Source: Bacteroidota bacterium
GTDB lineage: Bacteria > Bacteroidota > Bacteroidia > Chitinophagales > Saprospiraceae
Length of the DNA stretch: 64,000 nucleotides
NCBI GenBank assembly: GCA_020160935.1
Contig: JAIUPL010000013.1
Location: 47,710 to 111,709, forward strand
Direction of reading: 5' to 3'
Notes under the pieces: model-generated
The model's database searches: none
What the model was told of the DNA's origin: nothing
The model's input: only the letters and a program-made list of their open reading frames with translations
Shown here: one piece after another, positions 1 to 22,481 of the stretch
How positions within the stretch are numbered: the first letter of the stretch is position 1
Layout of the letters: each line of letters opens with the position of its first letter
Made by a program: the position numbers and the translations under genes

Positions 1-302
1 GCGCCTGCCAGAGCGGCCAGGGCGAACTGCAACAGGGAGAAGGCATTATCGGACTCACCCGCGCTTTTGCATTTGCAGGCGCTAAAAGCATTGTGCATTC
101 GATCTGGAGTATAGAAGACAACAAGACAATGATACTCATGACCGCTTTTTACCAAAACCTCAAAGCCGGTCAGGCCAAAGACACCGCCCTGGCCAACGCC
201 AAACGCAGTTTTATCCTCGATGGCGGCGATGGCCGCGAGCACCCTGTGTTCTGGGCAGGCTTTATCGGCGTGGGCGATATGCAAGCCATCGATCTCAAAT
301 AG
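1..302 (+). CDS. CHAT-domain (caspase-fold) protein, C-terminal fragment; 5' part lies outside the window
   Basis: The frame is open from nt 3. ACQSGQGELQQGEGIIGLTRAFAFAGAKSIVHSIWSIEDNKTMILMTAFYQNL...EHPVFWAGFIGVGD matches the conserved CHAT C-terminus (catalytic-Cys region, GL.RAF..AGA, W.V.D..T..LM..FY, P..WA.F). TAG stop at 300-302. Confidence 0.65.
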   Translation, partial: ACQSGQGELQQGEGIIGLTRAFAFAGAKSIVHSIWSIEDNKTMILMTAFYQNLKAGQAKDTALANAKRSFILDGGDGREHPVFWAGFIGVGDMQAIDLK

Positions 303-333
303 TAATTATCATCTTTTATCAAACCTTTTTAAC

Positions 334-756
334 ATGAAACAAGTAATGCTCAAATCATTCGCCCTGTTCTCCTTCGTTTTTTGCACCCAACTGCTCTCCG
401 CACAAACCAATGCCCGCTACACCCGCGAAAGCCCCGACGACCCGCGCTGCACCACCACGGTGACCAAAAAAACGACCACCACTGAACGCCCCATGTTTGA
501 AGGCGAAGTGCATGGGCATGTTACTGCGCCCAAAATCAAAACGCCGGTCGGGAAAGTAGGCGGCGGCGGCGGCGGGCGCGCATCCGGCAACTTCGGCAAG
601 GAAACCTACTCCACCACCACCATTACAGAAACAACTACCTGCTCCGGCGGAACCGTAACCGTCGGCGACCCTGTGTCGGCCAGCGGCAGCGGAGCAGCAG
701 CAGGCGGCGGCGCCATCGTCAAACCACAACCTTCTGTAACAGAAAAGAAGAATTGA
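334..756 (+). CDS. small secreted Thr/Gly-rich low-complexity protein, function unknown
   Basis: ATG 334 inside ORF 220..756 gives MKQVMLKSFALFSFVFCTQLLSAQ, which looks like a signal peptide. The rest is T/G/K-rich, including GGGGGG encoded by a (GGC)n run near 561-578. No recognisable domain. Confidence 0.45.
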   Translation: MKQVMLKSFALFSFVFCTQLLSAQTNARYTRESPDDPRCTTTVTKKTTTTERPMFEGEVHGHVTAPKIKTPVGKVGGGGGGRASGNFGKETYSTTTITETTTCSGGTVTVGDPVSASGSGAAAGGGAIVKPQPSVTEKKN

Positions 757-837
757 TTTTTTCCCGCTTCCCTTTTTCCAACTTCTTGCCCGATCTTGCA
801 GCGCCTGCCGGACCACCATACCCAGGCGCCGCTGATT

Positions 838-2301
838 ATGCTCCAACCCGAACTCAAATCTCAAATAGACCGCGTCTGGGAAGCCTTCTGGACCGGCGGA
901 CTGAGCAACCCCCTCACCGTTATCGAACAGATGACCTACCTGTTGTTCGTTCGCCGGCTCGATGAATTGCAAACCCTCAAGGAGCAAAAAGCCAACCTCC
1001 TGCACCAGCCCATTGAAGCGCCCATCTACCAGGACGCGGAATATCCCCTGCGCTGGAGCCGTTTCAAGGACAGCGACCCGGAAAATATGTTTCGCCTCTT
1101 CACCCGCGAAGGCGGCGTGTTCGATTTCCTGCGCAACAGCGGCCACCGCAGCGCTGCCTTCACTAAATACATGAAAGGCGCTACCTTCATGATTCCTACC
1201 CCGCGCCTGCTCTCGCAAGTGGTGGATATGCTGTCGAATATCGACATGGCCGACCGCGACACCAAAGGCGACGTGTACGAATACCTGCTCAGCAAAATAG
1301 CCACCGCAGGCCAGAACGGCCAGTTCCGCACGCCCCGCCACATCATCGGTATGATGGTGGATATGGTGCGGCCCACACCCGACGACATTATCTGCGACCC
1401 CAGCGCCGGCTCCTGCGGCTTCCTCATCGTGGCCGCCGAATACGTGCGCAGCCACTACGAAACGGAACTGTACGACGAAGCGCGCCGCGCCCATTTCCAC
1501 GACCGCATGTTCATGGGTATGGAATTCGACCCCACCATGATCCGTATCGGGGCCATGAACCTTCTCCTGCACGGCATCGAAAATCCGCAACTCCGCGACG
1601 TAGACGCCCTCAGCGAAGCCAATACCGATTTCACCCAAAAAGCATCGCTCATACTCGCCAACCCGCCCTTCAAAGGCAGCCTCGACCGCGAAGCCGTAGA
1701 TGGCAAAATACTGAGCGTGGTGGATGCCAAAAAGACCGAACTCCTGTTTCTGGGCCTTATCCTCAAAGGCTTGCAACTCGGCGGCCGCGCGGCCGTGATC
1801 GTGCCCGATGGCGTGCTGTTCGGCAGCAGCAAAGCCCACCTGCAAATACGCCGCGAACTCATAGAACGCCAAAAACTGCAAGCCGTCATCTCCATGCCCA
1901 GCGGCGTGTTCAAACCCTACGCCGGGGTGAGCACCGCCGTGCTGCTCTTTACCCGCACCGACAGCGGCGGCACCGACCAGGTGTGGTTCTACGACATGCA
2001 GGCCGACGGATACAGCCTCGACGACAAACGCCAGCCCATCGCAGCCAACGACATCCCCGATGTGGTGCATCGATACCTGCACCCCGACGCCGAACACGCC
2101 CGCAGCCGCACCGACCGCAGTTTTATGGTGCCCGTGCAAGACATCCGCGACAATAAATACGACCTCAGTATCAACCGATACAAGGAAGTGGTGTACGAAG
2201 AAAAAACCTACGCTTCTCCCGCCGATATCATCCGCGACATAGAAACCCTCGACGCCGAACGCGCCGCTTTGTTGAATGAATTAAAAAAGATGCTGGTATG
2301 A
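838..2301 (+). CDS. hsdM: type I restriction-modification system, DNA methyltransferase subunit M
   Basis: ATG 838 (an in-frame TTG at 796 is less likely). N-terminal HsdM-type helix LKSQIDRVWEAFWTGG...LLFVRRLDE, SAM motif DPSAGSCGF, catalytic motif ILANPPFKG, C-terminal YDLSINRYKE. The stop overlaps the hsdS start (ATGA 2298-2301). Confidence 0.93.
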   Translation: MLQPELKSQIDRVWEAFWTGGLSNPLTVIEQMTYLLFVRRLDELQTLKEQKANLLHQPIEAPIYQDAEYPLRWSRFKDSDPENMFRLFTREGGVFDFLRNSGHRSAAFTKYMKGATFMIPTPRLLSQVVDMLSNIDMADRDTKGDVYEYLLSKIATAGQNGQFRTPRHIIGMMVDMVRPTPDDIICDPSAGSCGFLIVAAEYVRSHYETELYDEARRAHFHDRMFMGMEFDPTMIRIGAMNLLLHGIENPQLRDVDALSEANTDFTQKASLILANPPFKGSLDREAVDGKILSVVDAKKTELLFLGLILKGLQLGGRAAVIVPDGVLFGSSKAHLQIRRELIERQKLQAVISMPSGVFKPYAGVSTAVLLFTRTDSGGTDQVWFYDMQADGYSLDDKRQPIAANDIPDVVHRYLHPDAEHARSRTDRSFMVPVQDIRDNKYDLSINRYKEVVYEEKTYASPADIIRDIETLDAERAALLNELKKMLV

Positions 2302-3494
2302 AATGGGAAATGGTGAAATTGGGGGAGGTAATAGAAAAGCCAATTTCTGGCGAATGGGGAGAAGGCGAAGGAGAAACATATGTACTTCGAACTACAAACT
2401 TTAGAAATGACGGGAGTCTAAATTTTGAAAATGTAGTTAGAAGGAATATTTCTGAAAAAAAAATTCGAGAAAAATCTCTAAAACCTGGTGATTGTATCAT
2501 CGAAAAATCTGGAGGTGGGCCAAGCCAACCGGTAGGGAGAGTTGTATATTTCGACAACCCGAATGGAATTTATCTGTGCAACAATTTTACTAGCATAGTA
2601 CGCCCTAAAGCAGATGTGTACCCCAAGTATTTATTCTGGTATCTCTTTAATAATCACCTGATTGGGAACACTTTATCATATCAAAATAAAACTACAGGGA
2701 TCATAAATTTACAACTGGAAAGATACGTTTCTGAATCCTACATCCCGCTCCCGCCCCTCGCCACCCAGCAGCGCATTGCCGACATCCTCGACAAAGCCGA
2801 CGCGCTGCGCCGAAAAGACCAGGCCCTGCTGCAGAAATATGATGAACTGGCGCAGGCGGTGTTTGTGGAGATGTTTGGGGATCCGGTGAAGAATGAGAAG
2901 GGGTGGGAGGTGAAATTTTTGAGAGATTGCTTTTCCTCAAAACCTAGAATTGGTACTATCAAGCCCGTGACTTCTGATGGTACGATTAAAGTTGTTAGAG
3001 TTAGTGAGATAGGAAAATTAAATATTAACTTAGAAAAATCAAAAAAGGTAATTATTGAAAAAAATGAGAAAGAAAGGTATTTACTCCAAGAAAACGACAT
3101 TGTACTAGCACGTGCAATTGGTAGTATTGACCATCTGGGGAAAGCATCTTTAGTTAAAAATTTAAAAGAAGATGTGGTTTTCGACTCACATGTTATGAGA
3201 TTGCAATTCAATCAAAAACTTCTTAATTCCTATTTTTTCTATACTTGGTTGCAATCACCGGGAGGCAGGAAAATATTTCTTGAAAATTCCAGTCAGACTG
3301 CTGTTCAGTTCAATATTAATGCAGAACAAATTTCGAGAATAAAAATTGCAGTACCACCAATCAATATCCAATGTAAGTTTGAAAAATCTATTTTAGATAT
3401 TTATCAACAAATCACATTTCTAAACCTCTCCCACTCCACCGCCCTCTTCCAATCCCTCCTCCAAAAAGCCTTTACGGGCGAACTGGTACCCTGA
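2298..3494 (+). CDS. hsdS: type I restriction-modification system, specificity subunit S
   Basis: Two variable halves, each followed by a conserved helical spacer: central PLPPLATQQRIADILDKADALRRKDQALLQKYDELAQAVFVEMFGDP and C-terminal STALFQSLLQKAFTGELV. Translationally coupled to hsdM. Confidence 0.9.
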   Translation: MKWEMVKLGEVIEKPISGEWGEGEGETYVLRTTNFRNDGSLNFENVVRRNISEKKIREKSLKPGDCIIEKSGGGPSQPVGRVVYFDNPNGIYLCNNFTSIVRPKADVYPKYLFWYLFNNHLIGNTLSYQNKTTGIINLQLERYVSESYIPLPPLATQQRIADILDKADALRRKDQALLQKYDELAQAVFVEMFGDPVKNEKGWEVKFLRDCFSSKPRIGTIKPVTSDGTIKVVRVSEIGKLNINLEKSKKVIIEKNEKERYLLQENDIVLARAIGSIDHLGKASLVKNLKEDVVFDSHVMRLQFNQKLLNSYFFYTWLQSPGGRKIFLENSSQTAVQFNINAEQISRIKIAVPPINIQCKFEKSILDIYQQITFLNLSHSTALFQSLLQKAFTGELVP

Positions 3495-3556
3495 GCCGGG
3501 CGGCGTGGATGCCAATGCCCAACACACACACCAGGAGGCATTGCAATTCCCTTTAG

Positions 3557-3690
3557 CAGCCTGCTGCCGCCATGCTGCGCTTGTCACCCTGGCGGGGCCC
3601 GTTCACCCTACGAGGGCAATTCGCTGATACGCGCCGTAGGGTGAACGGGCCCCGCCAGGGTGACAAGGGCGGCATGGCGGCAGCAGGCTG
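3557..3690. repeat. long near-perfect palindrome (56-nt arms, 22-nt loop)
   Basis: Arm 3557-3612 (cagcctgctgccgccatgctgcgcttgtcaccctggcggggcccgttcaccctacg) is the reverse complement of 3635-3690 with 2 mismatches by hand alignment. Confidence 0.9.
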
Positions 3691-3694
3691 CGAA

Positions 3695-3799
3695 TATGGC
3701 GTTTGAAGAGGATTGGATTGCGTTCGAACAGGATCAGATTGCGTTCGAACAGGGCTGGATTGCATACTAACAGGTTCAGATTGCGTTCGAACAGGGCAA
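3695..3799. repeat. 21-bp tandem repeat, 5 units (core GATTGCGTTCGAACAGG)
   Basis: Units start at 3695 (degenerate), 3716, 3737, 3758 (degenerate) and 3779, an exact 21-nt period. Each unit contains the TTCGAA palindrome. Confidence 0.85.
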
Positions 3800-3870
3800 A
3801 GAAGGACGGCAGGGGGAGTGTTCGGCAGTGTTTAGAAAAGTGTGTCACTTAGGCTTTTTGTGTTTTTTTG

Positions 3871-4047
3871 GCAGCCTATAGACGCCATGCCGCCTTGTCG
3901 TCCTGGCGGGACCCGTTCACTCTACGGCGCGTAGACAGCAAATTTCCCTCGTAGAGCGGACGGGCCCCGCCAGGGTGACAAGCGCGGCATGGCGGCAGCA
4001 GGCTGCGAATATGGCGTTCGAACAGGATTGGATGGCGTTCGAACACA
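3871..4047. repeat. second, more degenerate copy of the palindrome plus 21-bp-repeat composite
   Basis: Arms 3871-3926 and 3950-4006 resemble the 3557-3690 palindrome. They are followed by the same gcgaatatggcgtt junction and two 21-bp units starting at 4010 and 4031. Confidence 0.75.
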
Positions 4048-4055
4048 CTCATAGC

Positions 4056-4128
4056 CCGTCGGGACAGCGCCTTTCAAGGCGCGCACCACAAAATAATTCA
4101 TGCGCCTTGAAAGGCGCTGTCCCGACGG
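4056..4128. repeat. perfect 27-bp-stem hairpin (19-nt loop)
   Basis: ccgtcgggacagcgcctttcaaggcgc (4056-4082) is exactly complementary to gcgccttgaaaggcgctgtcccgacgg (4102-4128). Confidence 0.9.
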
Positions 4129-4212
4129 ACTAAAGTCCATGCTACCACCACGCACAAACTTTTGATTTGCAATAAAATAAGCCGTGTTTTTTCACGGGAA
4201 TCATTTCAAAAC

Positions 4213-4220
4213 TATATTTG
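4213..4220 (+). promoter_or_regulatory. candidate Bacteroidota -7 promoter box (TATATTTG) ahead of the ABC ATPase gene
   Basis: Exact match to the TAnnTTTG consensus, 40 nt upstream of ATG 4260. There is no clean -33 TTTG. Confidence 0.3.
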
Positions 4221-4259
4221 CTTTTTTCTAATGGGGTGTGCGGCGCCCGGCATCGGAAC

Positions 4260-5525
4260 ATGGACAAGCAGTTTTTCCTGGAATTTCAGCAAAAGATCAA
4301 ACAGTTTACGGATCATGGCAATCTGGAAGATGCCACGATTCAGTTGATGGATTTTACGCGGGAGTTTTCGGCGCAGGCGCTGCGGCAACGGGAAGCCTTG
4401 TCGATCCGGCAGGATTTTGTGGGCATTCCGCCGCAGGGCCGGGTGTTGGGGGGGCATGAAGCCTACAAGGCGGTGCGGGAACAACTGGTACTGCGGGTAT
4501 TCGACCTGCTGCGGGTGATAGAAGCCGATATGGAAGCGCCGCCGGAAGAAGAGGCGCAGCAGCAGCCAGGCGTCAGAAGTTTTGAGGAACACCTGTACCG
4601 GTCGCCGCAAGCAATGGAGGAAACGCCCAGGCCGATTGTCCGTGCGCACCACTTAGTGCAGCGTTTTGGGAAATTTACGCTGGAAGGCATCAACCTGACG
4701 TGTATGCCCGGCGAAATTCTGGCAGTGATCGGCGAAAACGGCTCGGGCAAAACGACCCTGCTCAATATGCTGGCCGGGGAGTGGGCGCCATCGGAAGGGC
4801 GGGTGGAATACGGTTTTACGGAGTCGGAAAACTGGTATGTGCGGAAACAGGGGATTGGGTATTTGAGCCAGGAGCCGCGTACTGCACCCAAAAAAACGCT
4901 GTTGGAGTACCTCAAATTTCTGGCAGCCATTCACGGACATCCGATAGAGTCAGCACAGCGTTTTATATATCGTTTTCGGCTCGAAGAATACAAGGATGCG
5001 ACAGTGGAAGAAATATCCGGCGGATACAAAACCCGGTTTGAACTGGCCTGTGTTTTGATCCGGGAGCCGCAATTGCTGGTCCTGGACGAGCCACTGGCGC
5101 ACCTCGACATCAACAGCCAGCAGATATTGCTAAAAGACCTGCGCGATTTTGCCCGTTCGCAGAAACGCCCGATCAGTATTGTGGTCAGTTCGCAGCACGT
5201 ACACGAAATTGAAAGCCTGGCAGACAAGATACTGTTTCTGGAGCAAGGGAAAGTGGTGTATTACGGCCCAAAAGTGAGTATCAATACAGACAGAACGTTC
5301 CATACATTTGAAGTGGAATGCGGCTGTGATATTGTAACTTCGATACAATTGATGAAGGTTTTACATCCCGGGATCGATGTGACACAATGGGGAACTTACA
5401 TGGTCATCCGTACACCCGTGGAAGTCGGCTTCATGGACGTACTGAATGTCTTTTATTTGAATAATATTTCGGTGATGTATTTCAGGAATGTATCGAGTTC
5501 CACCAGAATGCATTTTTACAGGTAA
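4260..5525 (+). CDS. ABC-type ATPase with a ~140-aa helical N-terminal extension
   Basis: Walker A GENGSGKTT, Q-loop YLSQEP, signature ISGGYKTR, Walker B LLVLDEPLAHLD, H-loop region SSQHVHE. The C-terminal ~100 aa resemble the tail of ABC-2-type exporter ATPases. ATG 4260 is preferred over TTG 4218, which overlaps the -7 box. Confidence 0.85.
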   Translation: MDKQFFLEFQQKIKQFTDHGNLEDATIQLMDFTREFSAQALRQREALSIRQDFVGIPPQGRVLGGHEAYKAVREQLVLRVFDLLRVIEADMEAPPEEEAQQQPGVRSFEEHLYRSPQAMEETPRPIVRAHHLVQRFGKFTLEGINLTCMPGEILAVIGENGSGKTTLLNMLAGEWAPSEGRVEYGFTESENWYVRKQGIGYLSQEPRTAPKKTLLEYLKFLAAIHGHPIESAQRFIYRFRLEEYKDATVEEISGGYKTRFELACVLIREPQLLVLDEPLAHLDINSQQILLKDLRDFARSQKRPISIVVSSQHVHEIESLADKILFLEQGKVVYYGPKVSINTDRTFHTFEVECGCDIVTSIQLMKVLHPGIDVTQWGTYMVIRTPVEVGFMDVLNVFYLNNISVMYFRNVSSSTRMHFYR

Positions 5526-5527
5526 AT

Positions 5528-6670
5528 ATGAATAAGAGAAACGGTAAGATAGACATATGGCTTGAGCGGCTCAACAAACCATTATTGAGCAAATCTCCAT
5601 TTTTGTGGGTGCAGAATTATCCGCGCATCATATATGTATGGACATTACTTGTATTTATTGTTGTTTTGATGCTTCCGCTCCCCACCGAACAGCCCGGAAC
5701 GAATGCATTTTACTTTCAGGTGCTGGTACCATTTCTTCCATTGATAGTCATCTGGTGGGATATTGCGCGGGAGTATTCAAAAACAGACATAGTTGACTAC
5801 TATCAAAACAAGGGGTTATTCGACCTGAGAGAAGAGAAAAAGGTATTACATATCAATCTGGCACTTGTTTCCATTCCGCTATTGCTGTGTTTAATTAACC
5901 TTGATCATCGTTATCACGGCAAACAGTTCCCTACAAGCAGCGAGTATAACCAGCAGAGGCTTTACGATTATGTAAAAGGGGAATATTACTTTTTACAGCA
6001 ACAGGGCATAGGGCCGGAAAAGAGTATGGCTATTTTCAGGGATTCTGTTTATCCTTTCTTGTATTACCGTGATTTTCCGTCGTTTGATTCGGCGGCATTG
6101 GGGCGCTGTTTCAAAGATGTTGCAGCAACAGATGCAAGCCTTTTGCTAACGAATTATTACTGTGCCCTGAATGATCCATTTATCAGGTTTGATGGCGCCT
6201 TAAATGCCAAGAGATACTCCTATGCCCAGGCCGTGGAATATTTGAATGATCATATTGTACCAGAGCATCTTGTGGGAGTATTCCACTTTTGGTTTTTTGT
6301 AGCCATTCACATTTGGTATTATGCGATTTGCAACCTGTATTTTAAAACCCTGCTTAAATGGTATAGGAAACATCCATTTCATAAAAACACGCAAATTTTA
6401 CTTAAAGCGATTGTTTTTATCATGCTGTTTTTCGGTTTGGCCGCAGTCATTTTAGACGAATTTTTTAAAGACTACAAGTATTTAATTGAAAGAGCAGGAG
6501 ACATAACTGGTCCTGTAATCTACACTTTTATAAAAATCTTCAATGTCATTTCCATACCCGTGTTTCTTTATTTCTACCTGAATAAATTTACTACCATAAA
6601 ACTGGAACTGCTCGATCAAGTGTCCAGGCCGAAAGAACCTGTTGCAGCAAAAACACAATCCAACCCTTAA
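5528..6670 (+). CDS. multi-pass (about 6 TM) membrane protein, function unknown; coupled to the ABC ATPase
   Basis: ATG lies 2 nt after the ATPase stop. Hydrophobic helices: IIYVWTLLVFIVVLMLPL, FYFQVLVPFLPLIVIWW, LHINLALVSIPLLLCLINL, VGVFHFWFFVAIHIWYYAI, ILLKAIVFIMLFFGLAAVIL, VIYTFIKIFNVISIPVFLYFYL. A ~125-aa soluble insert separates TM3 and TM4. AT-rich. Confidence 0.75.
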   Translation: MNKRNGKIDIWLERLNKPLLSKSPFLWVQNYPRIIYVWTLLVFIVVLMLPLPTEQPGTNAFYFQVLVPFLPLIVIWWDIAREYSKTDIVDYYQNKGLFDLREEKKVLHINLALVSIPLLLCLINLDHRYHGKQFPTSSEYNQQRLYDYVKGEYYFLQQQGIGPEKSMAIFRDSVYPFLYYRDFPSFDSAALGRCFKDVAATDASLLLTNYYCALNDPFIRFDGALNAKRYSYAQAVEYLNDHIVPEHLVGVFHFWFFVAIHIWYYAICNLYFKTLLKWYRKHPFHKNTQILLKAIVFIMLFFGLAAVILDEFFKDYKYLIERAGDITGPVIYTFIKIFNVISIPVFLYFYLNKFTTIKLELLDQVSRPKEPVAAKTQSNP

Positions 6671-6675
6671 CTTTG
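6668..6675 (+). promoter_or_regulatory. candidate -7 box (TAACTTTG) ahead of hsdR, overlapping the stop codon of the membrane-protein gene
   Basis: Matches TAnnTTTG, 39 nt upstream of ATG 6714. A TTG lies at 6642-6644. Confidence 0.25.
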
Positions 6676-6713
6676 TCCAGACTCCCCTACCCTGCACGCT
6701 ACCCAATCCAGCA

Positions 6714-9700
6714 ATGACGACCAATTTCTCCTATCTTCCCGAAGCATGGCAAGCGCTGGCCCGCACGGCCATCGAAGCCGAGCAACAGGTATATGCTGCG
6801 CCTATGTATGCGGCCATGCTGTGCCGCAAAAGCCTGGAGGAATGGATACGCTGGATATACGAACACGACGACGCGCTGGAAATGCCGCAAGACACCTCGC
6901 TCAATTCACTCCTGCACCAACAGGCTTTCAAGGAACTGGTAGCGCCAAGCCAGTTCGGCCAGATCAACCTCATCCGCAAAATCGGCAACAATGCGGTGCA
7001 TTCCAGTGTGCGCATCAAATCCGACGAAGCCCTGTATGCCGTCAAACTGCTGTACAACTTCACGGGCTGGGTAGTGCGGCTCTACGACGAGGCCGACCTC
7101 GTGGCGCCGCCCTTCAATACGGCCCTGGTGCCGCAGCCCGTTGCTGCCGACAAAAGCAAGGAAGAACTGCAAAAACTGGAAGCCGCCTACCTGCAATCGC
7201 AGGAAGCCTTGCAGCGCGTGCAGGCCGAACTCGATGCCATCAAAGCCGTCAAAGCCCGAAACCAGGCGTATGTGCCGCCGCCGCACGACCCCAATGAGGC
7301 CCTTACCCGACAATACTACATCGACGCGCTGCTGCGCGAAGCCGGTTGGGAGCCGGATGCGCCGCGTGTGCGGGAGTTCCCGGTGCAGGGCATGCCGACG
7401 GCACAGGGCGCCGACGGCACAGGCAGGGCCGATTACGTGCTCTGGGGCGACGACGGGCTGCCGCTCGCAGTGGTGGAAGCCAAACGCAGCCAGCACGACC
7501 CGCGCGTGGGCGCACACCAGGCCAAATTGTATGCCGATTGCCTGGAACGGGAATTCGGCCAGCGGCCCGTTGTTTTTTATTCCAATGGGTACGATACCTG
7601 GGTTTGGGACGACACCAGGTATCCGCCCCGCGCGGTGCAGGGGTTTTACACCCGCGACGAACTTCAGTCGCTCGTCCACCGCCGCTTCAGTCGACAGCCG
7701 CTGTCGACCGCGCCCATCAACGAGGCCATCACCGACCGATACTACCAGCAGGAAGCCATTCGGGCCGTCGGGGAAGCGCTGGAACAAAACCGCCGGGAAG
7801 TCCTGCTCGTCATGGCTACCGGAACCGGCAAAACGCGCGTAGCAGCCTCTATCATCGACGTGCTGAGCAAGGCAGGCTGGATAAAACGCGTGTTGTTTCT
7901 GGCCGACCGCAACGCGCTGATCCATCAGGCGAAAGTCAACCTGAACGAGTACCTCCCGCATTTACCCGCCATAGACCTGACAAAAGAAAAAGAAGACGAA
8001 AGCAGCCGCATCGTTTTTTCCACCTACCAGACCATCATCCACATGATCGATGGCGAATCGGAAGGTGGGCAGCGGAGTTACGGACCGGGGCATTTCGATC
8101 TGATTATTTTTGATGAAATACACCGAAGTGTGTACAACAAATACAAGTACATTTTCAGGTATTTCGACGGGATACGGCTGGGCCTTACCGCCACGCCCAG
8201 GGCCGAAGGCGACCGCGATACGTACGACCTGTTCGGCCTGGAGCCGCACAACCCGACCTATGCCTACGAACTGGAACAGGCTGTGAACGATGGCTTTCTG
8301 ACGCCGCCGACTGCCATTTCAGTGCCGGTGAAATTTCATCGACAGGGCATTCGTTACGCCGATCTGTCGGCAGAAGAGAAAAGGGCGTATGAAGAGCAGT
8401 TTGCCGACCCGATAACCGGGCAGTTTCCGGACGAGATAGATGCTGCGGCCCTCAACAAATGGCTGTTCAACGAAGATACCGTCGACAAGGTAATCGGCTA
8501 CCTTATGGAGCATGGCATCAAAGTGGAAGGCGGCGACAAATTAGGAAAAACCATCATTTTCGCCCGTTCGCACGAGCATGCCAAATTTATAGAAGGGCGT
8601 TTCAACAAGCAATATCCACAGTACGGCGGCCATTTTCTGAAAGTGATCGACTACCAGGAAGAATATAAGTACGACCTGCTGAATCAGTTTAAAAGCAGGG
8701 AAAAATTGCCGCAAATTGCCGTTTCAGTGGATATGCTCGATACGGGCATCGACGTGCCTGAAGTGGTCAATCTGTTGTTTTACAAGCCCGTACGCAGCAG
8801 CGCGAAGTACTGGCAGATGATCGGGCGGGGCACGCGCCTGTGCCCGGACCTGTTTGGCCCCGGCGACCACAAAAAGCGCTTTGTGATCTTTGATTTTTGT
8901 GAAAACTTCGAGTTTTTCGGCCAGCATCCGCAGGGTTTCAGCGGCAGCACCGGCAAATCATTGAGTCAGCGGATTTTCGAAACCCGCCTGAGGCTGGCGC
9001 AGGTATTGCAGGCAGAAACAGCGCCTGCTTTGCAGGAATACGCACAGCAACTGCTCGATCTGTTGATTGCTCAGACGCAGGCGCTCAACCGCGATAGTTT
9101 TATCGTGCGGCAGCACCTGCGCGTGGTAGAAAAATACAGTGATCCGCACCGTTGGAATGCGCTGGACGATCAGGATATGCGCGATATTTTTCGGGAAATC
9201 GCCCCCCTGGTGTCAGAAACCGGGCAGCATGAAATGGCCAAACGCTTTGATGCCATGATGTTCGACCTGCAATTGTTTTCACACGTAGGCGACAAGCGGC
9301 AGGCAGGCATTGTGAGGCAGGTGGCTGATATAGCAGGCCAACTGACCAAAAAAGGCTCCATCCCGGCCGTTGCGGAAAAGATGGATATGCTGCGCGGTGT
9401 TCATTCACAAGGCTGGGCTGCCGGGGCCGATGTTGTGGCTCTGGAGCGCATTCGACTCGACATGCGCGATCTGTTGCGATTTCTGGAGCCTTCGAGTCAG
9501 CCGCTGGTATATTCCACTTATTTAGATGCTTTTGAAAGCACTGCACAGGAACACACTTTATTGTACAAGGTGAACAACCTGGATGCGTACCGGCGCAAGG
9601 TGCAACAGTACATCCTCCAGCACGAACAGCACCTGGTGATTCATAAAATCAAAACGAACGTACCGATCACCCGCGCCGAACTGGCCGAACTGGAGCGGAT

Positions 9701-10049
9701 GTTGTTCGAACAGGGCGCCATCGGGACGCGGGAGGAGTTTGTACAGGCTTATGGAGATCAGCCGTTGGGTAAATTCATCAGAAGCATCATTGGTCTGGAT
9801 GCCAACGCGGCCAAAACGGCTTTTGCGGCGCTACTGCAAACGGGTCAGTTCAACAGTCGGCAAATCCGGTTTATCGACACGATCATCAATTCTTTTATTT
9901 CTCAGGGTATTGTGGAGCCGTCACGTTTGTTTGAGTCGCCGTTTACCGACCTGCATGCCCATGGATTGTCCGGTGTGTTTGATGCCTACACTTCCAGCAG
10001 GATTATTGAACTGGTAGAAAGCGTGAACAGGAATGCGGAGGTGGCGTAG
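6714..10049 (+). CDS. hsdR: type I restriction enzyme, endonuclease/helicase subunit R
   Basis: Nuclease-type motif ADYVLWGDDGLPLAVVEAKRS. SF2 helicase motifs LLVMATGTGKTR (I), DLIIFDEIHR (II), LGLTATP (III), QMIGRGTRL (VI). The helical N-terminus is DUF4145-like and the C-terminal region is typical of EcoEI-type R subunits. Confidence 0.93.
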   Translation: MTTNFSYLPEAWQALARTAIEAEQQVYAAPMYAAMLCRKSLEEWIRWIYEHDDALEMPQDTSLNSLLHQQAFKELVAPSQFGQINLIRKIGNNAVHSSVRIKSDEALYAVKLLYNFTGWVVRLYDEADLVAPPFNTALVPQPVAADKSKEELQKLEAAYLQSQEALQRVQAELDAIKAVKARNQAYVPPPHDPNEALTRQYYIDALLREAGWEPDAPRVREFPVQGMPTAQGADGTGRADYVLWGDDGLPLAVVEAKRSQHDPRVGAHQAKLYADCLEREFGQRPVVFYSNGYDTWVWDDTRYPPRAVQGFYTRDELQSLVHRRFSRQPLSTAPINEAITDRYYQQEAIRAVGEALEQNRREVLLVMATGTGKTRVAASIIDVLSKAGWIKRVLFLADRNALIHQAKVNLNEYLPHLPAIDLTKEKEDESSRIVFSTYQTIIHMIDGESEGGQRSYGPGHFDLIIFDEIHRSVYNKYKYIFRYFDGIRLGLTATPRAEGDRDTYDLFGLEPHNPTYAYELEQAVNDGFLTPPTAISVPVKFHRQGIRYADLSAEEKRAYEEQFADPITGQFPDEIDAAALNKWLFNEDTVDKVIGYLMEHGIKVEGGDKLGKTIIFARSHEHAKFIEGRFNKQYPQYGGHFLKVIDYQEEYKYDLLNQFKSREKLPQIAVSVDMLDTGIDVPEVVNLLFYKPVRSSAKYWQMIGRGTRLCPDLFGPGDHKKRFVIFDFCENFEFFGQHPQGFSGSTGKSLSQRIFETRLRLAQVLQAETAPALQEYAQQLLDLLIAQTQALNRDSFIVRQHLRVVEKYSDPHRWNALDDQDMRDIFREIAPLVSETGQHEMAKRFDAMMFDLQLFSHVGDKRQAGIVRQVADIAGQLTKKGSIPAVAEKMDMLRGVHSQGWAAGADVVALERIRLDMRDLLRFLEPSSQPLVYSTYLDAFESTAQEHTLLYKVNNLDAYRRKVQQYILQHEQHLVIHKIKTNVPITRAELAELERMLFEQGAIGTREEFVQAYGDQPLGKFIRSIIGLDANAAKTAFAALLQTGQFNSRQIRFIDTIINSFISQGIVEPSRLFESPFTDLHAHGLSGVFDAYTSSRIIELVESVNRNAEVA

Positions 10050-10061
10050 AGCATTTTCAAC

Positions 10062-10075
10062 GACAACATGTTGTC
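10062..10075. terminator. 14-bp perfect palindrome between convergent hsdR and the caspase gene
   Basis: gacaacatgttgtc is self-complementary. There is no U-tract, so terminator function is speculative. Confidence 0.2.
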
Positions 10076-10084
10076 TGCTCATGG

Positions 10085-11983
10085 CTATCTTGTACTGTCT
10101 TTCGTTTCCAGGCTAAGCCTTATGGTATAGGCTGTCCAATCAGTCTGTTCCAGGTGTTGGCGTTTTGCATCGCTCCGTAAGTAAGGAAAATGAGCAGACA
10201 GACCTTTTTGAACAAAGGGTTCTGTATTTAATTCTCCTGTACAAATTACTACTTTTATATATTCATCCACGGCAGAAAGGTCTGGCAGATCGATACGCAG
10301 TGGGATGGTTCGGTACTGGTAATTTTCAAAAACATCGGTAGCCCAAACTTCTTGCCCTGGTTGCAATTCCTGTTTTGGAAGTAATGCATTACTAATCGCA
10401 AAATTACTGTCGAGGTATAACACCCCGATCCAGTATGGTTGTTGTCCCGTATTGCGAATTTTAAGTTGAAAGCCAGGTCTGGAGCCTCCCGGTGTGTAAC
10501 GGAAAAGGGCAATATCAGTCTGCCAGTCCACCAATTCGACAGGAGCATTGTCTGATTCGTTTCCCGGTTCGGTCACACGATACAATTCAATGGTAATGTC
10601 CGACTCCGGTATTCGGGTGTTGTGGTTTGACAGATTGAGCGTGTGCAGCCAGTTGGCTACTACTTCCAGTTTTTGAAGAAAAAATATGGCTGTTGTTGTA
10701 CCATACCCTTGTATGGGTTCAAAAAATGGCAGATCATGATGTGTTCTGCTCAAAAAGTATGTACCGTTTTTCGCGTGCACGAGACATTCTGCTTGCATAA
10801 CCATGCTACATAATTGAAACAGGTCAGAGCCACGGTTTTCTATTGCTGCTGTCAAAAAGGAAACCCCTTCGGAGTCGCTGCCGGAAGCAAATGCGATGTT
10901 GAGTTTGGGTTTGGCTCTCAGCCGGATTACGGCACCATAAGATCGTTTTGTATCATAGCCCTCCATGCCGCTTACGGCTGAATGATCTGCAAAAACGGTT
11001 TCAACGGTTACCAGGTGCTCGTCTTCCTGCAGTTGCAGCACTGTGGGGTTTCCCGGTTCGGAGGGCGGAATGCCATGCATTGCTCCTGCATGGAGTACCC
11101 AGCCAGCAGAGTGATCCCAGGATACCAGAAATGACGGGTGTTCGGACTCGATCTTACTAAACAAGAAACCCAGGTTTCGATCTTCCTGAAAAGTTGCATC
11201 CAGTTGTGGAGACTGTTGTCGGACTATATTCCGAATTCGTTGGCGAATGCGCTCCAACAGGTTATGATAGGAAATCGACGCGCCGGTATTTTCAAGCGCT
11301 TCTACGAGGCAATAAGTGAAAATCCCGCCCGGCTTGTCTACAATAGTTATTTCTTTGGCCAGTTCGGTATCACGTGCTGCTGCCAGGTGAACCCTACGTC
11401 CCATCGGCGGGCGCAAGGCGCCGTCTTTCATTTTTTTAAAATGGTCGATGCCCAATAATTCAGATGCCGGAACGGCCGGCCCAAACTCACGGATTAAACG
11501 AACCCCGGAGGCTGCATCATCGGCATGACGCATCCTACCCGAATGGCAACAATCCATGGTCGTAACAAAAGGCACATCAATATGCTTGGAAACGCTCCAG
11601 ATGAGGTAGGATAATTCTTTGTCCATAAGGTCATACCCATCGGGCTGCCGGCTGTCCCAGCAAACGATAGATTCCTGATAATGATCTGGTTCGAATTCCC
11701 AGAAGGCTTCCGGAGCAGCACACCGGGAGCCATGGCCGGAGAAATGAAACAAACACGCATCTCCAGCCTGTGCTTGCTGGAAATGATCGAAACCCTCGAT
11801 GATCGCCTGACGCCCGGCCGCCTCATTGGTCAATACGAGCGGATAAAAAACTACTCCCATACGAGTGCAGTACGTGTCCAGAAATTGATACATGCGCTCA
11901 ACATCATTTACACAACCGTTGAGGGCGTGTGCAGGATTGGGATACTGGTCGATGCCAACCAGCAGGGCATATAATGTAGGCAT
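10085..11983 (-). CDS. caspase-fold (peptidase C14-like) protein with a ~370-aa beta-rich C-terminal region
   Basis: N-terminus YALLVGIDQYPNPAHALNGCVNDV, catalytic His in FHFSGHGS, catalytic Cys in TMDCCHSGRM. The C-terminal part (QLKIRNTGQQPYWIGVLYLDSNFAIS) recalls the DUF4384-type domain often attached to caspases; this is recognition from memory. Confidence 0.85.
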   Translation of the reverse strand: MPTLYALLVGIDQYPNPAHALNGCVNDVERMYQFLDTYCTRMGVVFYPLVLTNEAAGRQAIIEGFDHFQQAQAGDACLFHFSGHGSRCAAPEAFWEFEPDHYQESIVCWDSRQPDGYDLMDKELSYLIWSVSKHIDVPFVTTMDCCHSGRMRHADDAASGVRLIREFGPAVPASELLGIDHFKKMKDGALRPPMGRRVHLAAARDTELAKEITIVDKPGGIFTYCLVEALENTGASISYHNLLERIRQRIRNIVRQQSPQLDATFQEDRNLGFLFSKIESEHPSFLVSWDHSAGWVLHAGAMHGIPPSEPGNPTVLQLQEDEHLVTVETVFADHSAVSGMEGYDTKRSYGAVIRLRAKPKLNIAFASGSDSEGVSFLTAAIENRGSDLFQLCSMVMQAECLVHAKNGTYFLSRTHHDLPFFEPIQGYGTTTAIFFLQKLEVVANWLHTLNLSNHNTRIPESDITIELYRVTEPGNESDNAPVELVDWQTDIALFRYTPGGSRPGFQLKIRNTGQQPYWIGVLYLDSNFAISNALLPKQELQPGQEVWATDVFENYQYRTIPLRIDLPDLSAVDEYIKVVICTGELNTEPFVQKGLSAHFPYLRSDAKRQHLEQTDWTAYTIRLSLETKDSTR

Positions 11984-12054
11984 TAATACATATTGTAATT
12001 TTTTGAAAAATATTCTGCAATTTAGCGCTGTGCAAAGTAAGATTGGAATAAAAG

Positions 12055-12129
12055 TATAGGTAGTACTGATTTTTTGGTAGGATGGATACGGGTTTTCAGG
12101 TAGTCAAAATGCGTCTTTTTAGGTAGTTT
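12055..12129. promoter_or_regulatory. four (A)GGTAG(T) direct repeats in the divergent intergenic region
   Basis: GGTAG at 12059, 12076, 12099 and 12122 (spacings 17, 23, 23 nt). Three share the context T-rich + AGGTAGT. The array lies between the caspase gene (-) and the metzincin gene (+). Confidence 0.35.
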
Positions 12130-12179
12130 ATTCACAGACACTGTATATGACTTTTGTCTGTAAAATAATAATAGTAGTT

Positions 12180-12965
12180 ATGAAAAAGAATAAACAAGGA
12201 ACGCCCCCACATGACCCCAAAAATATAGTATCACCTGGCCTGCTTATGGCTGGTGCTGAGAAATCTATTTCAATAACAAGGAGGGAATTTTCGGTAATGA
12301 CACTGGGGGCAATGAGTAGTCTCGCATTGCCAAGTTTATTAAGGAGTCAAATCACGTCGGGGACGGCACAGGCTTCGGGAACCAATAATATCATTCATTA
12401 TTATTTCCATGATTTCGGGAATTTGTCTGTTCTGATACTGGAAAGGGCAGTGAAGATTATGCTTGATAATATTTTTTCACCTTTCATTCTTGAAGAAGCA
12501 TACCGGATTGCCTCCCGTTGGTGTATGCAGGATGGGTATTGGAAAGCCTGTAAAATGAATTTGCAATCGCACTATACCCCCTGGGATCTTTTATCCTATC
12601 AGATCAAAACGCTGTCTGTGCAATCAGTACTACCTGATCTGCATTTTTATGGCATGAATAAAAAAAGTGATATAATGGGGCAAGGAGAACTGGGATGTGT
12701 AAAAATTATTTGGGTAGATCCCAATTGGGTAAGAATCAAAGGTCATTTTAAAGTACAAATTAACCGAAGGCAGTTCATGTATTCGACGGATCCTTTGGAG
12801 TGGGCTGCCGTCATCGTTCATGAAATGCTGCATAATTTAGGACACGCTCATCCGGACAATGATTATAGACTCGATTTTCAAATAATGGCTTTCGAGCAGG
12901 CGATGTATTACAGCGCAGATACTTCGATATACGGCCCGCTTCCTTCCGCCTGGGGTGGGTATTAG
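12180..12965 (+). CDS. Tat-signal metzincin-like zinc metalloprotease
   Basis: Twin-arginine motif ITRREFSVMTLGAMSSLALPSLL and zinc site HEMLHNLGHAHPD (HExxHxxGxxH). ATG 12180 is preferred within ORF 12147..12965. Confidence 0.7.
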   Translation: MKKNKQGTPPHDPKNIVSPGLLMAGAEKSISITRREFSVMTLGAMSSLALPSLLRSQITSGTAQASGTNNIIHYYFHDFGNLSVLILERAVKIMLDNIFSPFILEEAYRIASRWCMQDGYWKACKMNLQSHYTPWDLLSYQIKTLSVQSVLPDLHFYGMNKKSDIMGQGELGCVKIIWVDPNWVRIKGHFKVQINRRQFMYSTDPLEWAAVIVHEMLHNLGHAHPDNDYRLDFQIMAFEQAMYYSADTSIYGPLPSAWGGY

Positions 12966-13127
12966 AAACTGTTTTAAACCCCCTCACCGGCTGCAAAGAC
13001 TTGTCTTTTAAGGCTATATTTCATCCATTGATAAAGGAATAGGCCCCGCTATGCCACCAAAAATGAATCTCATCTATCCTTAAAATTCAAGCCTTTTCGC
13101 CTCGGCAGGGGTTTTAAAACAGTTTCT
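12964..13127. repeat. 164-bp element bounded by ~20-bp inverted repeats (MITE-like or long hairpin)
   Basis: agaaactgttttaaaccccc (12964-12983) pairs with ggggttttaaaacagtttct (13108-13127), complementary except for a 1-nt indel. It starts inside the TAG stop of the metzincin gene and ends 13 nt before ATG 13141. Confidence 0.7.
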
Positions 13128-13140
13128 TAACCTTTTCATC

Positions 13141-15975
13141 ATGGCAAAGTCAATTCGTAATCAACTAACTGCACACTTTCCTGCTAGCCATGCCTTCCTC
13201 GTTGGGGTACAGGATTATAGGTATGTTGCGCCCTTACAGACACCAGTCAATGACATAAAAAGCCTGGCGGAAGTACTTCAAATAGAGGCGCATGGTTTCC
13301 ACGTGCATGAACTGTTGATCAACCCGGAAAAGGAGGCGCTTGAAACTTATTTCGAAACAACCATCCCTGGCATTGTCAAGGAAAACGATCGGGTACTGAT
13401 CTATTTTGCCGGCCACGGAATTGCCATAGACGAAGCGGGGCAAACAGAACCGAAAGGGTTTCTATTACCCGTCGATGCACGCAGGAGCGACGAACATTCC
13501 TTCACTTCCATGGCATTTCTCAATATGTGCCTGCAAAAACTCCCCTGCCGGCATTTACTCCTTTTGCTGGATTGTTGCTTTGCAGGTTCCTTTCAGTGGG
13601 CAGTGGATCAAACAAGAGGTTATGGAAGAGATTCATTCTTCAAGACTATTTATCGGCAACGCTATGAATATTTTCTTCAGGAACCCGCATGGCAGGCAAT
13701 TGCATCATCAGCGTATCATCAACGCGCTTTGGATGTTGCCATCGATTATGCACTCGGGCAACGAGAAAAGGTGGGAGGGGCTCTCAACTCTCCTTTTGCA
13801 GAAACCCTTGTCGTGGCACTCAGAGATGGCGCAGGTGACCGCAGTCCCTCAGACGGTTTGATGACGGTATCCGAAATTTTTGCTTACCTACAGGATCAAT
13901 TGGTTCAGTTTAGTCATCTTCATATTCAAAAGCCGGTATTCTTTCCATTGCGGAATCACAGGCAAGGGGAATTTATTTTTCTCAACCCAAAAGTAAAATT
14001 ACACCTGGCAGATTATTCAGACGACTACAATCCCTACAGGGGTTTAGAGTCTTATGAACACCATCATCGCAATCTTTTCTACGGTAGAGACCGAGTGATT
14101 GAAGATTTAATGGAAGTATTAAACTACAATTCCCTGCTGATTGTCAGCGGTGATTCAGGCGCAGGCAAATCCTCTCTGGTCAGAGCCGGATTGATGCCAG
14201 AATTGGAACTGAGGGGATATCGCTTGCTCCATCCGATTCGCCCTGGTATGCATCCACTTGAGTCACTTGAAACTGCTGTGAAGGAGGCATCGGATAAACC
14301 CAGCGATCTTCCTTCTATTTTACTGGTCGATCAATTAGAAGAACTTGCGTCATCTTATGTTCAGGGTACAGAACGCACAGCATTTTTATCTTTTTTATCT
14401 TCTGAACTGGAACAACAAAGGTTTTTTCAAAAAATCATATTAACGGTTCGTTCCGACTTCGAGACTTTTTTCGAACAGTCGCCACTATCCCCCTACTGGA
14501 ACCGGACAGCCCGTTATCCCATACCCGGCTTTGAGTATGCTGAGTTGGAAGACATCGTATTATGCCCCATGCAAGAGCGATGTATCACATATGAAAAAGA
14601 CCTGACAGCACAGTTGATTCGGGAGGTTCAGAACAAGATCGGTGGATTGCCCTTGCTGTCATTTGCATTATTCGAATTATATGAGTGTTTTAAAGGGAGA
14701 AGGTTGAATGATGAGCACTTTCGTACCATTACGTGGAAAGATTATCAATCCACAGGTGGCGTAGTAGGTGCCCTGGAAAAACGCGCTGACCACATTTACG
14801 AACGTTTCGATGATATACACCGATCCGTTTTCAGGAAAGTCATACTCCGATTGGTGTCCAACGAGAACAGGGAATCTGGAAGACGAGTCCTGGCAGATGA
14901 AATAACCTATCGAAACTCTGAGGAAAATCAATGTGTTTCGCTTATTCTGGAAAGCCTCATTGATGCCCGCCTGCTGGTTACCGGCACCGACTACAGAGGC
15001 GATCGATTTATAGAACCCGCACATGATGCGCTGATACGTAGCTGGAACAGGTTGCGGTTGTGGATTGATGAGTTCAAGGATTACCTTCCATTACGGGATC
15101 AATTGATCGCCAAACTTACGGATTACCGGCAAAGCGGAGGGAAAGAAACCCTCCTGATGCACAACGATCCCAGGCTGGCGCAATTGGAAGACGTTCGAAA
15201 TAGACCGCAATGTTGGTACAATGCCCAAGAGGACGAATATGTACTTCAGAGTATTGCATGGAGGGAGAAGAAAAAGCGGGAGAACCGCAGAATTAGAGCC
15301 TATGTCTTCAGCGGGTTATCTTTTCTGTTATTACTGGCTTGTCTGTTTGGAATACAAAGTTTTATTGCCAATCAGGATTTGAAGGTTAAACAGATTTCTT
15401 TACAGCATGCCAACACTACCATTTTGAATCAACGCGACAGTCTGATACGGCGCGAATATGAAAACAACATCGCCAAAGGCCTGGAAGCGCAAAGCCAAAA
15501 GCGTTTTGTCGATGCGCTCAGTTCATTTCAGGAAGCAATCCAAAGGTGCCAAAACGACTCACTACTACTCGATAGTTTGCCCATAGCCCTTTCCTGTAGA
15601 AGCAGATGTCAGAAGTTGGCAGCAGACGACACCCGCTTTCAGGAATTATCGACCCAGGCAGAATCTTTGATAGCAAAAAACGATGATCGGGATCTGGGAA
15701 CTATTATCGAAATATACCGACAAAGCCTGCAGAAAGAAGTGGATGCCAGTTCAAAGGCAGTAATTGTAGAAAAAATCAGACAACTGGAAACCAGAAGGGA
15801 CCAGGCGTTCACCAAGACGATGGATATCGCTGCCGGAAGGGTACGAATCAACGAACCTTGCAGCGCTTTTTTCCTCTATCAGAAAGCGAATCAGATCAAA
15901 CCCGGGCAATCGGAAGCACTTCAAAAAATGCACGAATTAAAGAGTATGGCATTGAATTGCAAGGAACTTAAATAA
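13141..15975 (+). CDS. caspase-fold protease fused to a STAND P-loop NTPase, one TM helix and a helical/TPR-like tail
   Basis: Caspase dyad YFAGHGI / LLLLDCCFAGSF. STAND preamble NPYRGLESYEHHHRNLFYGRDR, Walker A SGDSGAGKSSLVRAGL, Walker B ILLVDQLEEL (nSTAND1-like pattern). TM AYVFSGLSFLLLLACLFGIQSFI near nt 15296-15366, then ~200 helical aa. Confidence 0.88.
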   Translation: MAKSIRNQLTAHFPASHAFLVGVQDYRYVAPLQTPVNDIKSLAEVLQIEAHGFHVHELLINPEKEALETYFETTIPGIVKENDRVLIYFAGHGIAIDEAGQTEPKGFLLPVDARRSDEHSFTSMAFLNMCLQKLPCRHLLLLLDCCFAGSFQWAVDQTRGYGRDSFFKTIYRQRYEYFLQEPAWQAIASSAYHQRALDVAIDYALGQREKVGGALNSPFAETLVVALRDGAGDRSPSDGLMTVSEIFAYLQDQLVQFSHLHIQKPVFFPLRNHRQGEFIFLNPKVKLHLADYSDDYNPYRGLESYEHHHRNLFYGRDRVIEDLMEVLNYNSLLIVSGDSGAGKSSLVRAGLMPELELRGYRLLHPIRPGMHPLESLETAVKEASDKPSDLPSILLVDQLEELASSYVQGTERTAFLSFLSSELEQQRFFQKIILTVRSDFETFFEQSPLSPYWNRTARYPIPGFEYAELEDIVLCPMQERCITYEKDLTAQLIREVQNKIGGLPLLSFALFELYECFKGRRLNDEHFRTITWKDYQSTGGVVGALEKRADHIYERFDDIHRSVFRKVILRLVSNENRESGRRVLADEITYRNSEENQCVSLILESLIDARLLVTGTDYRGDRFIEPAHDALIRSWNRLRLWIDEFKDYLPLRDQLIAKLTDYRQSGGKETLLMHNDPRLAQLEDVRNRPQCWYNAQEDEYVLQSIAWREKKKRENRRIRAYVFSGLSFLLLLACLFGIQSFIANQDLKVKQISLQHANTTILNQRDSLIRREYENNIAKGLEAQSQKRFVDALSSFQEAIQRCQNDSLLLDSLPIALSCRSRCQKLAADDTRFQELSTQAESLIAKNDDRDLGTIIEIYRQSLQKEVDASSKAVIVEKIRQLETRRDQAFTKTMDIAAGRVRINEPCSAFFLYQKANQIKPGQSEALQKMHELKSMALNCKELK

Positions 15976-19148: not shown

Positions 19149-19171
19149 CATAATTATTTATCCCTTTTCGT

Positions 19172-20044: not shown

Positions 20045-20184
20045 CACTTTCATCTACCAGATTCCCGGTATATCAATTGCTGGTATTTAAGGATTTCCTG
20101 CACGTATGCCTCCCACGAACTTTGCACCAGGGTTCAGCACCCTTGGGAGCCCCAGTCTCCTTTCACTTGTAAAAACTTAATACC

Positions 20185-21321: not shown

Positions 21322-21349
21322 TAAACCTCATCACCAAAAAGCATTGATA

Positions 21350-22463: not shown

Positions 22464-22481
22464 AACTACACTTATTTCAAC

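Follow-up and report, generated by a model that had tools for sequence, protein, structure and literature searches.

What brings a type I restriction-modification (R-M) operon and three clan-CD (caspase/CHAT) proteases together at one locus of a Bacteroidota genome, and do these genes form one system? The locus lies in a stretch of 64,000 nucleotides (hereafter, the window; contig C31:47710-111709 of genome G000, 5.84 Mb and 50.3% GC) from a member of the Saprospiraceae (NCBI GenBank assembly GCA_020160935.1, contig JAIUPL010000013.1). A first-pass annotation, made from the sequence alone, had read the first third of the window as a defence or conflict island and had nominated uncharacterized genes within it (334-756, 4260-6670, 12180-12965 and 19172-21321) as candidates by association. 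Domain calls from Pfam, PADLOC and NCBIfam confirm all the genes that it named, including the three clan-CD proteases around hsdMSR and its embedded cassette, and their catalytic motifs are intact. We arrived at a reading to which we assign a probability of about 0.7: the genes belong to a species-specific plasticity region of ~35 kb at a tRNA-Ser locus, which is a piecemeal mosaic of independent modules and not one machine. The island proposal holds in that the block is accessory and variable and carries one bona fide R-M system and two predicted conflict modules. The block is not a single system, and about half of it consists of envelope and signalling genes that have no PADLOC match.

On its left, the block directly adjoins the 3' side of two conserved tRNA-Ser genes in tandem (anticodons GGA and CGA; G000:C31:41825-42127), which lie 5.6 kb upstream of the window; its other end is ~29.1 kb into the window. 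We compared it at the DNA level with 30 congeners, which sets the comparison at the level of species, not strains. These searches recovered the left flank (prs at 73-80% identity, the tRNA-Ser pair at 90-97%) and, on the right, the first gene conserved across the genus (29091-29699, strand unsettled), which 17 of the 30 congeners match at 68-78% identity over positions 29150-29587. The interior returned no match in any of the 30 genomes except for dispersed palindromic repeats of ~165 bp and hsdM/hsdR, the latter at 70-76% identity in only two congeners and at unrelated sites. Nor did the 30 relatives contain an orthologue of the caspase-STAND protein, for which the best hit was a partial match of 30-34%. 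GC content is 42-48% over 10-30 kb of the window, against the genome value of 50.3%. The block is therefore present variably between conserved flanks at the species level, and the core syntenic arrangement that would have spoken against the first-pass annotation was not found among the 30-40 congeners sampled.

Two congeners carry other cargo in the same slot, and in both it is unrelated to phage defence. In G036, which is among the closest congeners, the tRNA-Ser pair is followed by a PVC-like contractile injection system (L020:5966-19982, on G036:C17) with genes for Pvc16, the sheath, two tube proteins, a VgrG-like hub and baseplate J. In G042, it is followed by genes for a GH63 protein, a glycogen-debranching-type enzyme that is absent from the genome studied here, and an aquaporin; the distance to the conserved right-hand gene is 34.5 kb in G042 versus 34.7 kb here. 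The G042 genes that follow the tRNAs were also considered as orthologues of the TPR-CHAT protease, TPR kinase and response regulator of the block and were rejected, because BLASTP showed no similarity.

Assembly of the block would have been piecemeal, from independent modules, several of which are bordered by ~165-bp palindromic repeats that resemble miniature inverted-repeat transposable elements (MITEs). Two inverted palindromic copies of ~145 bp (3553-3694 and 3868-4009, spanning 3553-4009) occupy the spacer between hsdS and the downstream ABC ATPase gene and have 5-12 copies in the genome. The repeat search placed other palindromes between modules at 12962-13130 (~165 bp) and 22303-22468. 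Further palindromic MITE-like elements occur at window positions 29590-29760 and at L003:328-467. Altogether, at least four unrelated families of such elements, ~150-170 bp long, lie exactly at the module borders of the island; each family has 2-12 copies in the genome, and they occur in congeners as well.

The R-M operon (module B) has the full gene complement of a type I system. The methyltransferase gene hsdM (796-2301, plus strand; likely start 838) is matched over its full length by PADLOC MTase_I (1.2e-179), and by N6_Mtase (3.5e-61) and HsdM_N (1e-13). The specificity gene hsdS (2298-3494, plus strand) encodes two target-recognition domains (Methylase_S in two stretches; Specificity_I, 2e-81). 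Nuclease, superfamily 2 motor and C-domain are all present in hsdR (6642-10049, plus strand; likely start 6714), which carries a DUF4145 N-domain together with HSDR_N, ResIII, Helicase_C and EcoEI_R_C (REase_I, 6e-181, residues 27-1123) and is nearest to the EcoAI family in NCBIfam. All three subunits match the PADLOC type I models along their full lengths. Like other members of that family, the enzyme would be expected to methylate self DNA and cut unmodified DNA. Between hsdS and hsdR lie the repeat-filled 0.7-kb spacer, the ABC ATPase gene and a gene for a protein with 5-6 transmembrane (TM) helices. Defence genes embedded within type I R-M operons have been documented (PMC11411939; bioRxiv 10.1101/2024.01.29.577857; PMC12707154), and the contents of the gap differ among relatives. 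The orthologous hsdMSR of G008 (L021) has no insert and is flanked by Metallophos-nSTAND4 and ankyrin genes; that of G007 holds genes for an SH3_3 protein, an AAA_21/AAA_15 ATPase and a DUF3226 protein in the same gap (L022:10641-12807, on G007:C26). A further contig, L023, keeps the ABC-TM-hsdR order, with identities that drop from 79% for HsdR to 59% for the ABC ATPase and 42% for its partner. The passengers therefore evolve faster than the host operon.

The embedded ATPase, ABC435 (4260-5525, plus strand; ABC_tran, 2e-28), combines an EAD11-like four-helix N-domain with a transporter-type nucleotide-binding domain (NBD) and a C-terminal regulatory domain. Its AlphaFold2 (AF2) model (predicted local distance difference test score, pLDDT, 87) places a disordered linker between the four-helix domain and the NBD and gives the regulatory domain an alpha/beta fold. 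The best Foldseek matches were TM_1403, NosF, PmtC and ABCA nucleotide-binding domains, and DrrA- and CcmA-type transporter models of NCBIfam matched at ~1e-31. Homologues with 30-59% identity near full length often carry a Pfam EAD11 domain at the N terminus, and a fused TIR domain is present in some homologues. Aligned to the 23 EAD11 domains of the genome, the N-domain of the ABC family scored an hhalign probability of 94% (E 1.2e-7), and the four closest N-domain sequences alone scored 80%. The partner gene, orf380 (5528-6670, plus strand), belongs to a rare and fast-evolving family. A word-indexed homologue search returned only orf380 itself, a full HMMER search of 1.84e9 representative proteins returned five relatives, and within the order the family was present in 10 of 301 genomes (9 of 130 genera).

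The gene neighbourhoods of homologues point to a conserved pair. In all seven other contexts the ABC gene is followed by a gene for a multi-TM protein without Pfam match (338-804 amino acids [aa]), and we aligned orf380 with seven such partners, six from these contexts and one from L023 (alignment A1). A third gene follows in three of the seven, encoding an EAD11-CHAT protein (in Nostoc), an EAD11-TIR protein with a PIN gene after it, or an EAD11-only protein; it was not recognisable in the remaining four. Core and effector carry the same EAD in the homologous loci L025, L030 and L034. The nomination of 4260-6670, made by association, gains independent support from these homologues, which pair with EAD11-CHAT or EAD11-TIR/PIN effectors. 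We tentatively propose that the pair is a hitherto undescribed system of immunity or conflict that acts at the membrane and that, in this lineage, was captured between hsdS and hsdR, with a transporter-like ABC ATPase bearing an EAD11-type adaptor and a dedicated multi-TM partner as its core. A conformational change powered by ATP might then either breach the membrane through the partner or recruit and activate EAD11-tagged CHAT, TIR or PIN effectors.

Several results weigh against this proposal. The Pfam EAD11 model did not match ABC435 even at E<=1, and the genome holds no second copy of its divergent N-domain, the best hit being a canonical EAD11 protein (5.9e-5). Of nine further genomes in the order that encode the partner, only three have canonical EAD11, in one of them adjacent to the pair, and six lack it. 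The AF2 model of orf380 is of moderate quality (pLDDT 66) and found no fold match in the PDB by Foldseek (E>0.4, TM<0.2). No EAD effector adjoins the pair in the window, and recruitment of such effectors in this particular genome is an unproven candidate. The genome itself encodes 23 canonical EAD11 (PF19964) proteins, for example at C32:85120-86568, C14:272125-273384, C51:151722, C44:88528 and C37:4303, in which the domain is fused to caspase, trypsin-like, TIR, kinase, LRR-Roc GTPase-TIR or TM modules. An adaptor network of this size is unusually large for a single genome.

Three groups of known systems come close to the nested pair. In the cases described as type I R-M "guilt-by-embedding" (PrrC in EcoprrI; TgvAB of Vibrio cholerae VPI-2; the HEC/PDC candidates of Payne et al. 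2024), a small ATPase module likewise sits between hsdS and hsdR, and related R-M loci likewise have different inserts or none in the same gap. Those modules, however, couple SMC- or OLD-like ABC proteins to Toprim, PIN, NERD or HEPN nucleases, whereas the module here consists of a transporter-type NBD with an EAD11-like adaptor and a multi-TM partner. Matches of ABC435 to PADLOC candidates are limited to the P-loop or signature region, and its family usually lies outside R-M operons. The EAD-coupled conflict systems (Kaur, Burroughs, Iyer, Aravind, eLife 2020/2021) share with the homologous loci the principle that one small helical domain, in these loci EAD11, is borne both by the NTPase core and by a neighbouring effector, here of the CHAT or TIR type. 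They differ in that the core here is an ABC ATPase with a membrane protein; moreover, the EAD of the window copy is divergent and no effector lies next to the pair. The main texts of Kaur et al. (eLife 2020 and 2021) mention neither EAD11 nor ABC ATPases, and in the searchable supplement of 2021 EAD11 appears beside LRR-AP-GTPase-COR proteins from Haliscomenobacter, not beside ABC ATPases. The ABC/TM/EAD11 combination is therefore undescribed in the searchable literature. The third group is the MAD3-MAD4 pair of MADS. The PADLOC mad3 model matches ABC435 (1.4e-23), and mad2 and mad5 weakly match hsdM and hsdS. Yet the mad3 match covers only the stretch from signature to Walker B (residues 247-346), transporter models score higher (1e-31) and hsdMSR fit type I models far better. 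The partner of MAD3 is the nuclease MAD4 (PMC13662399), which is absent here, where the partner is a membrane protein; membership in MADS was rejected on these grounds.

The second predicted conflict module (module D) spans from 12180 to ~26.4 kb and is a co-inherited block built around a caspase-nSTAND1 NTPase (13141-15975, plus strand; nSTAND1, 9e-82; C14, 3e-14). An N-terminal caspase effector is joined to an nSTAND1 domain with an intact P-loop (Walker A, GDSGAGKSS), followed by a single TM helix (residues 720-738) and a 200-aa extracytoplasmic tail. The TM helix and the tail, which is helical, make up the last 225 residues, and residues 670-944 contain no sensor repeats. The WD40, TPR or FGS repeats that would form a C-terminal sensor are missing from this polypeptide, and a beta-propeller is encoded by the next gene. 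This gene, WG1052 (15990-19148, plus strand; WG_beta_rep, 4e-93, in 13 stretches), specifies an exported WG-repeat protein and is a candidate detached sensor. Upstream of the caspase-STAND gene lies one for a metzincin-like protein with a twin-arginine (Tat) signal (12180-12965, plus strand; motifs TRREF and HEMLHNLGHAH). WG1052 is followed by orf290 (19172-20044, plus strand), encoding a membrane-anchored partner of 290 aa, by the envelope genes orf378 and an OmpA-like gene (DUF3575 and a peptidoglycan-binding domain by Pfam; together 20185-22249, plus strand), and by orf174 and genes for a TPR histidine kinase and a LuxR-type response regulator (23064-26444, plus strand; Pfam).

Homologous neighbourhoods separate the conserved partners from the bystanders. 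On the metagenome contig L039, a metzincin homologue (52% identity) is directly upstream of a caspase-nSTAND1 homologue (58%), and orf174 and the TPR kinase have homologues further downstream (62% and 38%, respectively). The segment between them (L039:3737-9120, corresponding to window positions 15990-23054) has two WD40 proteins in place of WG1052, orf290, orf378, the OmpA-like gene and orf199. On L038, a caspase-nSTAND1 homologue (36%) comes before homologues of WG1052 (32% over the full length) and, directly after it, orf290 (33%). On L037, from a Saprospiraceae metagenome-assembled genome, a short-form caspase-nSTAND1 precedes a separate WD40 protein. The genes at 12180-12965 and 19172-20044, both nominated by association, are therefore conserved partners of the caspase-STAND block, and 20185-21321, nominated with the latter, is not: orf378 and the OmpA-like gene are absent from both L038 and L039, have no PADLOC match and show no conserved link to the caspase-STAND gene. 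Judging from gene order, the region between the metzincin/caspase-STAND genes and the orf174/TPR kinase genes looks like a swappable beta-propeller cassette. Most homologues of the window protein are caspase-nSTAND1-WD40 proteins of 1400-1600 aa from cyanobacteria (PF20703), which likewise have an N-terminal caspase with an intact dyad fused to nSTAND1. The window protein differs from these in having a TM helix and an extracytoplasmic tail instead of a repeat sensor. It also differs in its separate exported propeller gene (WG here and on L038, WD40 on L039 and L037) and in the conserved Tat-metzincin upstream.

How do the other two clan-CD proteases relate to this module? A stand-alone metacaspase-like protease, casp632 (module C; 10085-11983, minus strand; Peptidase_C14, 4e-19), has intact motifs (FHFSGHGS and DCCHSG), matches the PADLOC caspase model (3e-32) and metacaspase MCA2 in the PDB (7e-9), and ends in a 360-aa C-terminal region without family assignment. 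Its match to the caspase-STAND homologue of L038 is confined to the caspase domain, at 27% identity. The TPR-CHAT protease belongs to module A and enters the window with its C terminus (1-302, plus strand; CHAT, 3.7e-53, and TPR). The whole protein has 1086 aa, and its gene starts 2958 bp upstream of the window (G000:C31:44751, which is L003:7042). It has a Sec signal peptide, MKLHLFLLFIIAFCMQVQA, and an intact His/Cys dyad (LHGEA/SACQSG). A Csx29-type protein of a type III-E Craspase would be a cytoplasmic TPR-CHAT protease encoded beside gRAMP/Cas7-11; this one carries a signal peptide, and the neighbouring open reading frames (ORFs) contain no cas domains. At E<0.01 its only matches among solved structures were TPR designs and TPR proteins.

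Module A, which extends from upstream of the window to position 756, also contains a divergently transcribed gene for an extracytoplasmic function (ECF)-type sigma factor, whose sigma70-ECF match (1e-8) falls short of the family cut-off, and one for a TM anti-sigma-like protein. The small gene downstream of TPR-CHAT (334-756, plus strand) encodes an exported Thr/Gly-rich protein with a signal peptide; it has neither a family match nor a paralogue, and its nomination as a defence candidate found no support. An exported protein of 187 aa with DnaJ-like CxxC...CxxC clusters is encoded directly upstream of TPR-CHAT (L003:6472-7035; C31:44181-44744), and it too returned no family match and no paralogue. 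PADLOC recognized only the TPR in module A, and the genome has no paralogous set of these partner genes elsewhere. Module A looks like an envelope signalling or proteolysis module and is not evidently one of immunity. The three proteases of the window are thus not close relatives or paralogues, do not form one operon and belong to different modules. They do not mark a theme common to the island, given that TPR-CHAT has a signal peptide and sits with the ECF pair.

Clan-CD genes nevertheless cluster in this genome as a whole. It encodes 17 of them (eight Peptidase_C14 and nine CHAT), and in 20,000 random placements a group of at least three within 14 kb was infrequent (P=0.011). By the same procedure, close pairs exceeded chance genome-wide (P=0.0004), and further clusters lie on C35, C32 and C27, two of which adjoin EAD11 proteins. 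From the triple, the excess of pairs and the additional clusters, we conclude that the clustering is genuine. The genome also contains Por_Secre_tail proteins, the cargo of type IX secretion.

At its right end, the block closes with a Tectonin-repeat protein (26507-28867, minus strand; Tectonin, 8e-152), the last species-specific gene, which had no DNA match in the congeners. The protein has 786 aa and eight Tectonin-domain stretches. The adjoining conserved locus at 29091-29699 contains overlapping ORFs on both strands (plus, 167 aa; minus, 200 aa), neither of which has a family match.

Some of these observations would fit a block that is no island at all. It is rather unlikely, though it would account for part of the evidence, that the region is a fast-diverging envelope and signalling stretch in a genome with abundant caspase, CHAT and STAND paralogues, with one R-M operon and a co-location of proteases that has no functional meaning. 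The points that weigh against an island run in this direction. In this deep genus, core genes of different members share 65-80% DNA identity and synteny is poor everywhere, and loss of synteny alone is therefore weak evidence for accessory status. The 17 clan-CD genes and the 23 EAD11 proteins occur at scattered sites across the genome, and the exported and envelope proteins that make up about half of the block have no defence match. PADLOC, which the first-pass annotation had proposed as a check, returned the complete type I R-M system and isolated caspase matches and no second complete system. Mobility genes are likewise missing: the Pfam results for the ORFs of the block include no integrase or transposase, and within 43 kb the tRNA 3' end does not recur as a direct repeat of at least 14 bp. 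What argues for the mosaic plasticity region is the clustering of clan-CD genes above chance, the contrast between flanking core genes at 68-97% identity in congeners and an unmatched interior, a GC content 5-8 points below the genome mean, and three different cargoes in the same tRNA-flanked slot. The position directly 3' of the tRNA genes, the low GC and the species-specific content could also be those of an integrative element (a genomic island, an integrative and conjugative element or a prophage) that inserted in tRNA-Ser and has since lost its integrase. We consider such a remnant very improbable, since conjugation and phage structural genes are missing from the Pfam results along with integrase and transposase, the tRNA 3'-end repeats were not found, and the separate evolutionary neighbours of the modules (L023, L038 and L039) point to piecemeal assembly. 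With neither integrase nor att-like repeat, we therefore call the locus a plasticity hotspot and not a defined mobile element.

The embedded pair raises a narrower alternative, that it guards the R-M system in the manner of PrrC or PARIS, monitoring HsdMSR and responding to its inactivation by a phage anti-restriction protein with damage to the membrane or recruitment of effectors. It shares with prrC the position between hsdS and hsdR (PMC12707154), its order with hsdR is kept at the second, diverged locus L023, and no kind of gene is embedded in defence operons more often than ABC ATPases. The distribution of the pair makes this role improbable. Nine other genomes in the order encode a member of the partner family, and in none of them does hsdS lie near it; R-M genes are also absent from all six of the other informative metagenomic contexts of the ABC/TM pair (the seventh, L031, is too short to tell), so that the pair is not mostly associated with R-M. 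Its architecture also differs from the guardians, as the ATPase has a transporter-type NBD and a regulatory domain and is not SMC- or OLD-like as in PrrC and AriA, and the partner is a multi-TM protein in place of a nuclease. In addition, the related operon of G007 holds other cargo and that of G008 none. We conclude that the cassette is a two-gene module in its own right, inserted at a position already known to take up cargo (as with PrrC and TgvAB).

Taken as a mosaic at a hotspot, the island is of a known kind; its interesting variants are two modules, the nested one with the transporter-type ABC/TM pair and the caspase-STAND one with a split sensor. Its modules would act independently of each other and would share the locus because accessory conflict genes accumulate at the hotspot. 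From its context, the ABC/TM pair may serve as a membrane-associated, ATP-driven sensor or switch that is independent of the R-M system and acts through its membrane partner, possibly through EAD-recruited effectors. Module D may be a STAND switch for cell death or proteolysis, with its sensing half located beyond the cytoplasmic membrane.

Across the orthologous R-M loci, the gap between hsdS and hsdR is filled in three different ways, which offers a clean natural experiment on the exchange of cassettes in defence operons. An ABC/TM core that travels with EAD11-tagged CHAT and TIR effectors would, if confirmed, extend the "death-domain-like adaptor" logic to a core made of an ABC ATPase and a membrane protein. 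The sensor of the caspase-STAND protein has apparently been split off and exported, which, if true, would allow the sensing of events outside the cytoplasm. The island as a whole adds a further case of accessory conflict genes at a tRNA hotspot, in Saprospiraceae-like, filamentous-type Bacteroidota that work on phage defence has little touched.

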